DNA from: an uncultured Chloroflexia bacterium
Lineage (GTDB): Bacteria > Chloroflexota > Anaerolineae > JAAYZQ01
Reading direction: 5' to 3'
DNA: 64,000 bases
NCBI GenBank assembly: GCA_963700285.1
Contig: CAVOXA010000001.1
Location: 1,056,001 to 1,120,000 of the forward strand
The position numbers were made by a program, and so were the translations under genes. Of this stretch, positions 44,302 through 53,618 are shown in pieces (position 1 is the first letter of the stretch; every line of letters starts with the position of its first letter). The notes below the pieces were generated by a model. That model made no database searches. It had not been told where the DNA came from and saw only the letters and a list, made by a program, of their open reading frames with translations.

Positions 44302-44330
44302 CTTGACAGGCCCGCAACCCTCTGCTATAC
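44302..44330 (+). promoter_or_regulatory. Sigma70 promoter of the trxA operon
   Basis: TTGACA-17 nt-TATACT. Confidence 0.75.
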
Positions 44331-44338
44331 TGTAGCCG

Positions 44339-44355: not shown

Positions 44356-44438
44356 GTCGGTTTGATGCATATCTTATCACGATACAGGCTTTTTGTCAAC
44401 GTTGCGGATGGTTGATGGGCCGAGAACTGGAGGGGCTG

Positions 44439-44909
44439 GTGTCTGGTCTGCTACAAAGGTTGTTTGGCAAGAAAGAGGATGGGAAATCAGAGGCTGTTGC
44501 GACCGCTAGCAGTGAGTCGGTTGGTAATGGGAACAGCGACTCTGATGCCACGGGTGATCTGGATGCCGGCGCGACCGTGTCTGATGCCGAGCCGATCCAT
44601 GTTACGGATGAGAATTTTGACGAGATGGTAGGGAATTCGCGCTTGCCCGTGTTGGTTGATTTCTGGGCGCCCTGGTGTGGTCCGTGTCGCATGGTAGCCC
44701 CGGTGGTAGAAGACCTGGCCAGGGCTTACGATGGACGGGCGTTGATGGCCAAAGTGAACACCGATGAGAATGTGCAGGTGGCCAGCAACCTGGACATCAT
44801 GGGCATCCCAACGTTGATCCTGTTCAAGGATGGACAGGAGATTGATCGGGTGGTCGGTTACGTTCCCCAGCGCGTGCTTGAAGAAAAGCTGAACGCGGCG
44901 TTAAACTAG
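44439..44909 (+). CDS. trxA: Thioredoxin with an N-terminal extension
   Basis: VDFWAPWCGPCR, MGIPTL. Confidence 0.93.
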   Translation: MSGLLQRLFGKKEDGKSEAVATASSESVGNGNSDSDATGDLDAGATVSDAEPIHVTDENFDEMVGNSRLPVLVDFWAPWCGPCRMVAPVVEDLARAYDGRALMAKVNTDENVQVASNLDIMGIPTLILFKDGQEIDRVVGYVPQRVLEEKLNAALN

Positions 44910-44918
44910 GAGGTCTGG

Positions 44919-45350
44919 GTGCACGCTTTTCGGGACAAGACGGGTCGTTTTTTCAGGGAGAATTGGCTCTTTCTGCTCGTCGTTGGTGGAGTCATTGCGG
45001 CATTCCTGGCGCTCCGTACTCCTGCCAGCGCTGTGGGCTCTGTCGCTGAAGTTGATGCTCTGTTGCAGAATGGGCAGCCAACCTTCGTCGAGTTTTATTC
45101 CAACACTTGAGGCTCCTGCCTTTTGGCAAAGCCTGTCGTGGACAGGCTGGAGCGAGATCTGGAGGGAGAAGCACGGGTGCTGCGCCTAAGTGCCTGGGAT
45201 TCAGTGGGCCGCCAGCTCGCCTCGCGCTATGGCGTGCGCGGCGTCCCCACGTTCTTGCTGTTTGATGGTTCGGGACACATGGTCCACTACCAGGTGGGGC
45301 GCCTGGACGCGGACCAAGTCAAGGCTCAGATCAACTTATTGGGGAGGTGA
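44919..45350 (+). CDS. Probable selenoprotein: membrane-anchored thioredoxin (UGSC)
   Basis: ORFs 44919-45110 and 45123-45350 are in one frame joined by a TGA: VEFYSNT-U-GSCLLAKPVV..YGVRGVPTF; N-terminal TM helix. Confidence 0.88.
45130..45148 (+). promoter_or_regulatory. Candidate SECIS (AGCCTGTC-GTG-GACAGGCT)
   Basis: Perfect 8-bp stem with a GTG loop, 19 nt after the TGA. Confidence 0.7.
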
Positions 45351-45354
45351 ACCT

Positions 45355-45579
45355 GTGCCCATCTACGAGTATACCTGCGGAGATTGTCACGAGCAGTTTG
45401 AAAAGTTTGTGCGTTCCATGACGTCGACCGTTGAGGTCAAATGCCCCGTATGCGGGGGAACGCACGTCAAGAAGGGGTGGTCCACATTTGGCACGGGAAA
45501 TGCCGGCTCGGGCTTTAATCTAGCGACATCCGCAGCCAGCAACTGCAGCCCAGGTGGCACCTGAGGCATTCCTCGCTGA
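45355..45579 (+). CDS. FmdB-family zinc-ribbon protein, probably with Sec near the C-terminus (CSPGGT-U-GIPR)
   Basis: PIYEYTCGDC..CPVCG; TGA at 45562 followed by a hairpin. The ORF ends at 45564 if the TGA is a plain stop. Confidence 0.8.
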
Positions 45580-45595
45580 GAGCCGTGGGCTCTCA
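45577..45595 (+). promoter_or_regulatory. Candidate SECIS (TGAGAGCC-GTG-GGCTCTCA)
   Basis: Perfect 8-bp stem with a GTG loop, 12 nt after the TGA; no U-tract. Confidence 0.62.
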
Positions 45596-45653: not shown

Positions 45654-45947
45654 ATGGTGCTATCGTCTGAGACTCGGGAAGACATGTTGGCCAGGATGCG
45701 ACGCATCGAAGGGCAGGCCCGCGGCGTGGAGAGGATGATCGCCGAGGACAGAGATTGCCTGGACATACTGACACAGCTGGCCTCGCTGCGTTCGGCGGCC
45801 TACAGCGTCAGCGTCGCATTGACGCAGCACTTTGCCCTCCAATTTGTCCGCGATAGCCGCCAACAAGGCCTGCCTCCCGACCAACAACAGCTTCCTGACG
45901 ATGCCATGCGAAACCTGGTGGACGTGCTGCTGCGGACACCACACTGA
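45654..45947 (+). CDS. CsoR/RcnR-family transcriptional repressor
   Basis: RMRRIEGQARGVERMI..DCLDILTQLAS. Confidence 0.9.
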   Translation: MVLSSETREDMLARMRRIEGQARGVERMIAEDRDCLDILTQLASLRSAAYSVSVALTQHFALQFVRDSRQQGLPPDQQQLPDDAMRNLVDVLLRTPH

Positions 45948-45959
45948 CCACTGAAAGGG

Positions 45960-46136
45960 ATGGGTATTGTGGAGATTTTTGGCTTGAGTGCGGATGTGAT
46001 TCTGGTAATAGGGCTTCTGATAGGTTGGGTGGTGCTGATGCGCTTTGTCCTGCCCCGATTTGGGGTTTCGACCTGAATGAGCGAGTCCTGCGACGCGGCG
46101 TCGCCGCGTGAGGAAAAAGACCAAGTCGCAGATTGA
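45960..46136 (+). CDS. Probable 58-aa membrane selenoprotein (LPRFGVST-U-MSESC), absent from the ORF track
   Basis: RBS-like AAAGGG; hydrophobic helix; in-frame TGA at 46074-76, then 19 further codons including a Cys; hairpin at 46093-46109. Confidence 0.65.
46093..46109 (+). promoter_or_regulatory. Candidate SECIS (ACGCGGC-GTC-GCCGCGT)
   Basis: 7-bp stem with a GTC loop, 16 nt after the TGA. Confidence 0.58.
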
Positions 46137-46160
46137 ATGGAACTCTTTGCATTTTGTCTG

Positions 46161-46196
46161 AAAAGGGCGGTATCTGATACTGATACCGCCCTTTTT
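46161..46196 (+). terminator. Terminator closing the trxA-selenoprotein operon
   Basis: AAAAGGGCGGTATC/GATACCGCCCTTTT stem. Confidence 0.85.
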
Positions 46197-46231
46197 GTTC
46201 ACACCAGTTGCGCAAAAGAATTTCACCTTGA

Positions 46232-46260
46232 TTGACAAAGGCCGGCAACCATGGTACAAT
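46232..46260 (+). promoter_or_regulatory. Sigma70 promoter
   Basis: TTGACA-17 nt-TACAAT. Confidence 0.7.
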
Positions 46261-46316: not shown

Positions 46317-46757
46317 ATGCTGAATGAGAATCGACCGGTCTACACGATAGGCACAGCGGCCGAACTCTTGAGTGTTCATCCACGCACACTGCGCCTGTAC
46401 GAGGATGCGGGGCTGATTCGCCCGGCGCGCAAGAACAATCGCCGTTTCTATTCGGCCACCGACCTGGAATGGATCAATTGTGTGCGCTACATGATCCACG
46501 AACAGGGACTGAATCAGGAGGGGCTCCGGCGCTTGCTGGCGCTAATTCCTTGCTGGGAGATCAATGCCTGCCCACCGGAGAGCAAGGCCAACTGTTCTGC
46601 TTGGTCAGATCGCACGACGCCCTGTTGGGACCTGGCCCGTACAAGCAGGGCCGAGTCGAAAAAGTGCCACGAGTGCCAAGTCTATCTATCTGCCAGAGAC
46701 CACTTGATGGGTGAGGCAGAGATGGAGGCTGCGCTGAACTATGCAGCGGCCAGTTGA
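46317..46757 (+). CDS. MerR/HspR-like regulator with a Cys-rich C-terminal (two-CW-like) domain
   Basis: YTIGTAAELLSVHPRTLRLYE; CW..C..C..CW..CxxC. Confidence 0.85.
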   Translation: MLNENRPVYTIGTAAELLSVHPRTLRLYEDAGLIRPARKNNRRFYSATDLEWINCVRYMIHEQGLNQEGLRRLLALIPCWEINACPPESKANCSAWSDRTTPCWDLARTSRAESKKCHECQVYLSARDHLMGEAEMEAALNYAAAS

Positions 46758-50284: not shown

Positions 50285-53200
50285 GTGAGTATGGGGCAGA
50301 GACGGCAGTGTGTTCGCATTTTGGCAGGTCTACTGGTGTTAAGCCTGGTAGTCACATCTGTCCCGTGGACTGGTATACAGGTCCAGGCGCAGGCAACCGA
50401 GTTGTTCTTTTCCGAGTACATAGAGGGCTCGAGCAACAACAAGGCCCTGGAGATCTACAATGGCACCGGGGCCGCGATCGATCTGGCAGCCGGCGGCTAC
50501 AACGTCCAGATGTATTTCAACGGAAGTGCGAGCGCCGGCCTCACGATCAACCTGACCGGCACGGTGGCGGATGGGGATGTGTTCGTGCTGGCCCACTCCT
50601 CGCGCTGACGCGACCATCCTCGCCCAGGCTGACCAGACCAACGGCGCGGGGTGGTTCAATGGCAACGATGCGGTTGTGCTGCGCAATGGTACGACCATCC
50701 TTGATGTCATTGGCCAGATCGGCTTTAACCCCGGCACCGAATGGGGCAGCGGCCTGACCAGCACCGCCGACAACACCCTGCGCCGCAAGGCGACCATCTG
50801 TGCCGGCGATCCGGACGGCAGCAATGCCTTTGACCCATCCGTTGAGTGGGATGGTTTCGCCACGAATACCTTTGACGGACTGGGAGCGCACACGGCCAAC
50901 TGCGGTCCGACGCCGCAAGAGCCCAAGATCAACGAGTTCTCGGCCAGCACCACTGGCACCGATGTAGAGTACGTCGAGATCTTTGGCTCTGCGGATACCG
51001 ATTACTCTGCCTACACGGTTCTGGAAATCGAAGGGGATACGCACCGGCGCTGGCGTGGTTGACGAGGTCATCCCCGTCGGCACGACCGATTCCGCCGGAT
51101 TCTGGCTTGCAGAACCTGGCCGCAAATGCGCTGGAGAACGGCACGCATCACCCTGCTGCTGGTCAAGGACTTTAGCCGGTGCATTCAGCGACGATCTCGA
51201 CACGGACAATGATGGCGCCTTCGATGTCACGCCCTGGAGCGCGATCGTCGATGCCGTCGCTGTGAACGACGGTGGGGCAGGCGATCTGACCTACGGCGTG
51301 CCGGCCCTCGGCCCGAACTACGATGGCGTCAGCAGCTTTGCCCCCGGCGGCGCTTCGCGCTATCCCCGACGGCTTCGACACGGACAGCCGCCACCGACTG
51401 GGTGCGCAACGACTTCGACCTGGCCGGCATCCCCGGCTTCCCGGCACCATCGTGCCTGGGCGAGGCGTACAACACGCCCGGCGCACCGAACGAGATCTAT
51501 GTTCCGCCGCCCGAAGCCTGCGGCGACCCCTTCACGCCCATCTACGACGTGCAGGGCAACGGCCTGACCAGCCCGCTGGTGGGCACGGAAGTGGCCGTCG
51601 AAGGCGTCGTCGTCGGCGACTTTCAGAACAATGACCAGCCCGACAACGGCAACCTGAACGGCTTCCACGTTCAGGATCCGGTCGGCGATGGCGATCCAGC
51701 CACCTCGGATGGCGTCTTTATCTACGCCCCAGGCGGCATGGATGTCAGCGTGGGCGATGCCGTGCGCGTGCGCGGCACGGTGTCCGAGTACAACGGCATG
51801 ACCGAGATCACCGCGAGCCAGATCTGGCTGTGCTCGAGCGGCAACAGCGTGGCTCCAACCGCACGTCTCACTGCCCGTGGCAAGTCTGGACGATTTCGAG
51901 CCCTTCGAGGGCATGCTGGTCACCTTCCCGCAGTCGCTCTACATCTCCGAGTACTTCAACTTTGACCGCTTCGGCGAGATCGTGCTGACCGCGGATCGCC
52001 AGTCCCAGCCGACGGCCGTCTACGAGCCTGGGTCGCCGGAGGCAGCAGCCGCTGGCGCAGGCTAACCTGCTCGACCGCATCACGCTCGACGATGGGCGCA
52101 CCACGCAGAACCCCGATCCGGCCATCCACCCCAACGGCGGCATCTTTGACCTGACCAACCTGTTCCGCGGCGGCGACACGGTCCAGAACGTGACCGGCGT
52201 GATGGACTACAGCTTTGGCCTGTACCGCATCCAGCCGACTCAGGGCGCGGACTATACCATCGGCCAATCCCCGCACCGGCCCAGCCCGACGACGTGGGCG
52301 GCAGCCTGAAGGTGGCCTCCTTCAACGTGCTCAACTACTTTACGACTCTTGACGACGGTGTCTGGATCTGTGGCCCGGCGGGAGACCAGGAATGCCGCGG
52401 CGCTGACACCCCTGAGGAGTTCACGCGCCAGCGGGACAAGATCATCGCCGCCCTGGCTGCCATCAATGCCGACGTGGTCGGGCTGATCGAGATCGAGAAC
52501 CATCCGGGCGATGTGCCCACGGCCGACCTGGTAGCTGGGCTCAACGATGTGATGGGCGCGGGAACCTACGACTACATCGCCACCGGCGCCATCGGCACCG
52601 ACGCCATCCGGCAGGCCTTCATCTACAAGCCGGCGACGGTGACGCCGCTGGGCGCCTACGCCATCCTCGATTCCTCGGTGGACCCCCGCTTCCTGGATGA
52701 CTACAACCGGCCGGTACTGGCCCAGACCTTTCAGGACAACGCCACCGGCGGCATCTTCACCGTGGCGGTCAACCACCTCAAGTCCAAGGGCTCGGACTGC
52801 AACGACGTCGGCGATCCCGATCTTGGCGATGGCGCCGGCAACTGCAACCTGACCCGCAAAGCCGCGGCCGAGGCCCTGGTGGACTGGCTGGCGACCGATC
52901 CCACCGGCAGCGGCGACGCCGACTTCCTGATCATCGGCGACCTGAACTCCTACGACAAGGAAGATCCGATCGACGTCTTGCTGGCTGGCGGCTACACCGA
53001 CCTGATCTACCAATTCCTGGGCGAATACGCCTACTCCTACGTCTTTGACGGCCAGATCGGCTACCTCGACCATGCCCTGGCCGGCGCGAACGTGAACCTG
53101 CTGGACGAGGTCACCGGCGTGACGGTCTGGCACATCAACGCCGACGAGCCCGACCTGATCGACTATGACATGAGCTTCAAGCAGGACGCCCAGGATGCGC

Positions 53201-53618
53201 TGTACGCGCCGGATGCCTACCGCTCCTCGGACCACGATCCGGTCATCGTCGGCCTGGATGTCTGCGACGAGATCGCGCCAACCTGGAGGTATCGGTGACT
53301 CCCGACACGCTCTGGCCGGCGAACCACAAGTACGTGGAAGTGCAGGTGAGCGTCGATCTGGTCGAGGACAACTTTGACCCGAACCCGCTGGTGACGCTGG
53401 TCTCGGTGACGTCCAACGAGCCAGACGACGGCCTGGGCGACGGCGACACCCCTGTCGATATCGTGATCGTCGATGACTTCAGCTTCAAGCTGCGGGCGGA
53501 GCGCTCCGGCACGGGCGAAGGCCGGATCTACACCATCACCTACCAGGTGACGGATGCCTGCGGCAACAGCACCGAGGCGACAGCCACGGTGACGGTGCCG
53601 CACGACAAGGGAGAATAG
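50285..53618 (+). CDS. ExeM/NucH-family extracellular endonuclease with a lamin-tail domain (several frameshifts)
   Basis: Signal peptide; [17 protein letters not shown]; IYDVQG; [31 protein letters not shown]. Confidence 0.88.

Follow-up and report, generated by a model that had tools for sequence, protein, structure and literature searches.

A predicted membrane-anchored micro-selenoprotein with a U-x4-C tail, encoded last in a likely thioredoxin, FmdB and CsoR operon

Introduction

Short selenoproteins of the kind considered here were in print by 2008, when Zhang and Gladyshev (GOS) listed among the previously described families one called 'Unknown', comprising 15 sequences and lacking Cys homologues (PMC2398784). 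Data S1 of deep-Sep (2025) holds six entries of the same predicted kind, with the U-x4-C arrangement. A possible origin of the 'Unknown' family is the set of earlier bSECISearch candidates without Cys homologues given in the Olavius paper (PMC1976440). The family is not in Table 1 of a 2026 review (PMC13188914), was not found in the sections of a 2022 review that were compared (PMC9312934), and has no match in the main text of PMC5029168.

Bacterial selenocysteine insertion signals are described by the bSECIS model, which calls for a loop of 3-9 nt with a G in its first two positions, a stem of 4-16 bp, a spacing of 16-37 nt and a free energy of -7.5 kcal/mol or better (PMC13188914). Among FmdB-family proteins (TIGR02605), the same review lists selenoproteins with UxxU (PMC13188914). 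In Bacillus licheniformis, the genes for a repressor, a rhodanese, TauE and a thioredoxin make up a sulfane-sulfur cluster (PMC9918477).

Here we analyse a predicted micro-selenoprotein gene in a window of 64,000 nt from the genome of an uncultured Chloroflexia bacterium (GCA_963700285.1, contig CAVOXA010000001.1, positions 1,056,001 to 1,120,000; below, positions are those of the window). A preliminary description, made from the letters of the window, had proposed a selenoprotein with a single membrane helix and a Sec/Cys tail. Added here are the Cys homologues, the covariation of the SECIS, the size of the family, its partners and the overlap with sigma factor genes.

Results

Translation of the ORF 45960-46136(+) gives a hydrophobic segment, LPRFGVST, an in-frame TGA, MSESC and a polar tail; counted from ATG 45960, the TGA is codon 39, and the frame closes at a TGA stop at 46134-46136. 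The preliminary description took this as a 58-aa ORF with U-x4-C. The frame, the TGA and the Cys are as it translated them; the start, however, is probably GTG 45969, which would give a product of 55 aa, the 58-aa reading from ATG 45960 being disfavoured. This choice is based on the Shine-Dalgarno pairing energies (-7.7 kcal/mol at GTG 45969 vs +0.4 at ATG 45960), on G001, a genome of the same genus, which has ACG at the site of ATG 45960 and ATG at the site of GTG 45969, and on the nearest database fragments of the protein, which are 35 aa long. As had been described, the gene lies between csoR, assigned to the CsoR family by a PF02583 match, and a terminator-like hairpin with a T-run (Table 1). 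In the one RNA run searched, 5% of the words were present, as short pieces from other organisms.

Table 1. Features of the locus, in window coordinates.
Feature	Position	Strand	Basis and remarks
Promoter consensus of the sigma-70 type, ahead of the operon	44303..44331	+	11/12 matches; consensus only
Thioredoxin (WCGPC)	44412..44909	+	TIGR01068 above cut-off
Thioredoxin-like protein, predicted Sec (U-x-x-C), hydrophobic N-terminus	44919..45350	+	TGA 45108-45110; GTG-loop hairpin 45130-45148
FmdB-family zinc ribbon, predicted C-terminal Sec	45355..45579	+	TIGR02605 above cut-off; TGA 45562-45564; hairpin 45577-45595
CsoR/RcnR-family repressor	45654..45947	+	PF02583 above cut-off
Shine-Dalgarno-like GAAAGGG	45953..45959	+	9 nt before GTG 45969; sequence and pairing energy
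Micro-selenoprotein gene	45969..46136	+	Probable start GTG 45969; 55 aa; U36-x4-C41
Predicted single membrane helix	45990..46061	+	Residues 11-34 of the 58-aa reading; ends in conserved basic LP[RK]xG
In-frame TGA, predicted selenocysteine	46074..46076	+	Conserved in relatives; Cys at the site in database proteins
Conserved Cys (U-x4-C)	46089..46091	+	Five codons after the TGA; absent from three distant members
Predicted bacterial SECIS	46093..46109	+	7-bp stem; GTC loop 46100-46102, 23 nt after the TGA; -11.2 kcal/mol
Intrinsic-terminator-like hairpin and T-run closing the operon	46159..46197	+	z -7.2; absent from the consensus terminator scan list
MerR/HspR-like regulator, Cys-rich C-terminal part	46317..46757	+	Own promoter consensus 46232-46260

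The TGA is conserved among relatives. Among 61 relatives searched, 25 genomes match, and all 25 keep one in-frame TGA each and read U-x4-C. A class-level search of 401 genomes gave 56 matches, 49 of them with the TGA; the seven TGA-less matches are weak (E above 1e-5) and short, and all 30 loci fetched from this search read U-x4-C. The phylum search (401 genomes, 15 matches) returned as real members, with six loci read, only the genome of the window (G000) and four others, the remainder being weak. Reading four distant members from other classes (L151, L152, L153 and L150) showed that all keep the TGA and the hairpin; one has its second Cys at +8 (U-x7-C), and the three without a second Cys are what one would expect were Sec the essential atom. 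A pattern scan of metagenomes gave at least 119 matches, of which 119/119 anchor to the motif; the pattern itself fixed the TGA and the Cys at +5, so the counts for those two hold by construction. The hydrophobic segment is visible in the 115 metagenome matches printed, wherever the contig extends far enough.

Coding continues past the TGA. No stop falls within ten codons of it in any of 142 distinct loci (0/142), as against 82 and 36 loci in the other two frames. The residue that follows is Met in 85 loci, Leu in 35, Val in 13, Ile in 6 and another in 3, such that the next codon is ATG in 85/142 and a non-start codon in many others, and the tail behind Sec comprises 13-41 residues. The preliminary description would have been abandoned had there been no homologues or no conservation beyond the TGA; neither occurred. 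The MSxxC that it looked for downstream reads MSESC in the window.

Homologues with Cys at the site also exist, and they run through it. A search with the family profile yields 1131 clusters at 90% identity and 726 at 50%. Of 121 proteins examined from the former, 108 end exactly at the LPxxGxxT motif, which is how database homologues had been expected to look, and in the other 13 the next residue is Cys (12) or Trp (1). Of 150 examined from the latter, 20 are truncated, 125 read through and 5 were missed by the motif. The site residue in the 125 read-through proteins is Cys (100; consensus C-M-S-G-x-C), Trp (19), Ser (3), Gly (2) or Leu (1), and 123 of them have the second Cys; the Trp likely represents a TGA read under another code. 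These roughly 110 Cys homologues are known as predicted proteins alone, and a scan of the genome collection with Cys replacing the TGA in the pattern gave 1 match and 0 loci. Within the first 30 residues of the tail, 41/112 Cys forms have an extra Cys vs 0/143 Sec forms. Longer fused forms were absent among 7992 candidates, which is weak evidence. One protein, P0271, joins a Cys homologue and a thioredoxin domain in a single 208-aa ORF; its C-terminal part looks frameshifted, and the fusion may therefore be an artefact. We found no relatives in the plasmids or phages searched, nor in viral contigs, where four pattern matches were chance matches in other frames.

The GTC-loop hairpin that had been noticed after the UGA fits the SECIS model on all four counts (3-nt loop with a leading G, 7 bp, 23 nt, -11.2 kcal/mol). 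Taken alone, however, it is barely past chance (z -1.3 and -1.8), and its support comes from the homologues. In 23 distinct relatives, 88.6% of the cells of an eight-pair stem are paired and two-sided changes occur in 6/8 pairs; none of 500 shuffles does as well, and slid controls stay at or below 52.7%, figures that apply to a set of kindred sequences from which the structure itself was derived. Across the family, a hairpin of -5 kcal/mol or better follows the TGA in 119/142 loci vs 108/600 ordinary TGA stops of G000, and one of -7.5 kcal/mol or better in 89/142 vs 55/600. The hairpins fall into two main classes, with a spacing of 16 (AGGT loop) or 23 (GTC/GGA loop).

G000 carries tRNA-Sec, SelA, SelB and SelD. 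Of the 25 carriers of the gene, 23 have SelA, and both of those that remain have SelB together with tRNA-Sec; SelA is, however, present in 55/61 of the genomes as a background, and this test does not discriminate carriers. One genome that lacks a SelA match has two SelB matches above cut-off (G003:C201 and G003:C19), and selD was not found in G001, which is 90% complete. In the G000 assembly, selD, selB and fdhA are frameshifted, each split over several frames (G000:C9:56688-57628, C10:2126954-2128870 and C1:67790-69915, respectively). Assembly error is the likelier cause, because 5/27 non-Sec regions of G000 are frameshifted too. A long extracellular-looking gene of the window (about 50285-53618) also lies over several frames, and the assembly looks indel-prone.

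The hydrophobic segment is predicted to be a membrane helix, with hydropathy above 2 in 19-residue windows. AlphaFold models a single helix at residues 11-34 in the 58-aa numbering, with a pLDDT of about 85 for residues 11-30, and leaves the rest as coil, with no fold predicted for the tail; the mean pLDDT is 66. Net charge over the 14 residues before U is +1 to +3 in 142/142 loci, and the N-terminal side is neutral or negative in 124/133. By the positive-inside rule, the basic flank of a membrane helix faces the cytoplasm, and these charges therefore suggest that Sec does so as well. The strongest conservation in the family is at the end of the helix and in the LP[RK]xG[VI]xT stretch. No meaningful NCBIfam (20.0) or Pfam model was found for the protein, 24 relatives or 86 family members, and PDB sequence and Foldseek searches gave no match.

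The micro-selenoprotein is likely the last gene of an operon in the order thioredoxin, U-x-x-C thioredoxin-like protein, FmdB, CsoR and micro-selenoprotein; the MerR/HspR-like regulator beyond the terminator is probably on a separate transcript. Two of the partners are themselves predicted selenoproteins. The thioredoxin-like gene is split into two ORFs by the TGA at 45108; U-x-x-C is read in 21/22 rows, and an 8-bp hairpin is conserved in 21 loci. The FmdB protein of the window ends with Cys, five residues, TGA, four residues and the stop, its SECIS-type hairpin extending past the stop. FmdB proteins neighbouring the family have a TGA end in 46/46 distinct cases; in 42/46, a SECIS-type hairpin is present and the stop follows 1-7 codons on. 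In the CsoR of the window, Phe stands in place of the second Cys found in G001 and most relatives, a difference of one base and possibly an assembly error.

In 144 loci of the family, the recurring neighbours are FmdB (47), the thioredoxin family (28), HspR/MerR (19; downstream in 18, upstream in one more), ECF sigma/zinc anti-sigma (19), CsoR (15) and rhodanese or YgaP-TM (6); many of these loci are kin rather than independent, and 39/144 show only about 320 nt a side. Rarer neighbours, seen once or twice each in sets of 90 and 78 representatives, are TauE (2), ArsR, OsmC, a protein disulfide oxidoreductase, PerR and CopA. Many loci show none of the recurring neighbours, and no membrane partner recurs across lineages in the neighbourhoods scanned.

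An ECF sigma gene follows the micro-selenoprotein in 18/144 loci. In 16 of these 18, all 16 being metagenome loci (L035, L043, L047, L048, L052, L055, L064, L075, L080, L083, L085, L091, L099, L133, L135 and L142) the sigma ATG lies inside the tail, 34 or 40 nt after the TGA, and the two genes overlap by 29-65 nt. The best Shine-Dalgarno-like pairing for sigma falls in the loop and 3' arm of the SECIS in 13/16 of them. The overlapping sigmas are 47-95% identical. The sigma gene is missing from 35 loci of this SECIS class. A zf-HC2 anti-sigma gene usually stands behind the overlapping sigma gene, and in several of these loci an alternative hairpin could pair the TGA itself with the SECIS. Upstream in L043, L048, L075, L085, L091, L099 and L133, a gene for a multi-helix membrane protein is found, often after that of a 4Fe-4S protein; the membrane protein has no Pfam or NCBIfam match at the thresholds used.

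Discussion

The above results indicate that the gene almost certainly reads its internal TGA as selenocysteine, SelB reading the hairpin and inserting Sec. The proposal of a selenoprotein with one membrane helix and a Sec/Cys tail is thus borne out by TGA conservation, covariation of the SECIS, Cys homologues and the presence of the Sec machinery. The opposite reading, that the TGA is an ordinary stop which ends a 35-residue peptide, the downstream frame being chance or an ATG-started mini-ORF, draws on TGA being the commonest stop of G000 (2174/4410 long frames), on the frequent ATG after the site and on the frameshifted Sec genes of the assembly. It is, however, largely refuted and extremely improbable, since the codon at the site is always TGA, the frame behind it is open in 142/142 loci with many non-start codons next, Cys homologues run through the site and the hairpin covaries.

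As to function, we put the chances about equal for and against a reading in which the micro-selenoprotein is a cytoplasm-facing Sec/Cys redox relay of a thiol/sulfur-stress operon, recycled by the neighbouring thioredoxins. This role is suggested by the Sec/Cys pair, the members with Sec alone, the neighbours, the P0271 ORF with its thioredoxin and the usual chemistry of Sec. In an N-out/C-in topology, the Sec put in at the UGA would lie a few residues past the helix on the cytoplasmic side. There, as the reactive centre, it would react at the membrane surface with an oxidant or with sulfane sulfur. The Cys would resolve the Sec adduct to a selenenyl-sulfide, and TrxA or the U-x-x-C thioredoxin-like protein, together with the C-terminal Cys/Sec pair of FmdB, would re-reduce the relay. 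A regulator of the CsoR/CstR, ArsR or ECF-sigma type would place the system under stress control.

The same tail might instead make a Sec-containing, membrane-tethered binder of metal or metalloid (Cu, Hg, Zn, As) that buffers ions or passes them on. The extra Cys residues in 41/112 Cys-form tails (0/143 Sec forms), the unstructured tail and neighbours that include CsoR-family proteins, ArsR, CopA, NikR, PerR and zinc-binding proteins are in keeping with such a binder, which we nevertheless consider rather unlikely: thioredoxin neighbours (28 loci) outnumber metal pumps (about 2), some members keep Sec alone, and the CsoR neighbours have no copper-binding His where that residue usually stands. 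A conserved helix end with LP[RK]xG[VI]xT could also be a binding surface. The protein, using Sec/Cys as its switch, would then serve a membrane enzyme or transporter whose gene lies elsewhere, either as a small accessory subunit or as a regulator; no membrane partner recurs, however, and the absence of longer fusions in 7992 candidates also points, if weakly, away from this improbable arrangement.

The sigma overlap is a possible selenium-coupled switch, and for part of the family the gene may act chiefly in cis, as a selenium sensor, UGA read-through or the SelB-SECIS complex setting translation of the overlapping ECF sigma, while the protein may co-regulate the zinc anti-sigma. The sigma ATG inside the tail in 16 loci, with Shine-Dalgarno-like pairing within the SECIS in 13 of them, is what recommends this decidedly unlikely reading. 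Against it, 35 loci share the SECIS class without a sigma gene, the spacing of the +40 class is long for a Shine-Dalgarno sequence, two loci are without a standard sigma start, and the loci may be one lineage in which overlap is mere tight packing. It is inapplicable in the window, because there the gene is the last before the terminator. Doubtful too, but directly testable as selenium-coupled gene regulation where the sigma overlap is concerned, is a broader picture in which the micro-selenoprotein would team up with the C-terminal-Sec FmdB in a two-selenium stress module of wide occurrence. The gene would also be a selenium-sensing switch in one lineage, where the ribosome-binding site of the overlapping ECF sigma gene, lying in the SECIS, would let Sec decoding (SelB binding, read-through or UGA termination) set the level of sigma.

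The redox relay, or whatever part the protein plays, would belong to a family that has been predicted since 2008 and is common in Sec-using bacteria. It is invisible in annotation and missing from the catalogue table because gene callers cut at the TGA; most top hits at 90% identity are 35-residue stubs. Naming the family together with its Cys homologues, SECIS classes and partners would mend this gap in annotation. The micro-selenoprotein itself is a minimal membrane-anchored Sec peptide, and easy to test.

Eukaryotic SELENOK and SELENOS are small proteins with a single membrane helix, a disordered cytoplasmic tail and Sec near the C-terminus. The micro-selenoprotein differs in that its Sec stands right after the helix, with 13-41 residues behind it, and we claim no homology. 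The DUF2892/YgaP-like membrane proteins (PF11127), which are neighbours in a few loci, have a similar ending, LG[IV]ST, after a membrane helix; they have, however, two helices, RxxR and a C-P motif, and the micro-selenoprotein is without these. Homology to DUF2892 is rejected: of 86 members, none has a PF11127 match with an E-value of 1 or lower, and hhalign gives a probability of 6% over 9 columns.

The neighbourhood shares genes with sulfane-sulfur detoxification clusters of the CstR type (PMC9918477), at least as far as the part compared here goes: recurrent neighbours of the micro-selenoprotein include a CsoR-like repressor, thioredoxin, rhodanese and TauE. A link to CstR itself is possible through the CsoR family match in the window and the pattern of two Cys seen in relatives; none of the neighbours scanned was identified as sqr or as a persulfide dioxygenase, and the full CstR set is in no single locus. 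The FmdB partner departs from published FmdB selenoproteins (GOS 2008 and others, in the passages compared), which carry Sec in the N-terminal ribbon, whereas in the window it is C-terminal; in the FmdB neighbours Sec mostly follows a Cys by 4-9 residues and precedes the stop by 1-7.

Compared by eye, the predicted micro-selenoprotein and the GOS 'Unknown' and deep-Sep entries appear to be the same family. Both have a short hydrophobic N-terminus, then LP[RK][LM]G[VI]xT-U with a hydrophobic residue next to it, and a Cys that follows Sec at four or five residues; the tail is polar and the length 50-60 aa. Most of the GOS reads compared have U-x5-C, as against U-x4-C in the window and the deep-Sep entries. 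It had been called new or poorly described; in view of these entries it is not new, but it is poorly described, being unnamed, without an NCBIfam or Pfam model and uncharacterised in function. Neither a motif nor SECIS covariation, and neither neighbourhood nor function, is given in the GOS and deep-Sep passages compared. The window copy belongs to the GTC-loop SECIS class at 23 nt. Finally, where GOS counted 0 Cys homologues in its data, the present analysis has about 110.
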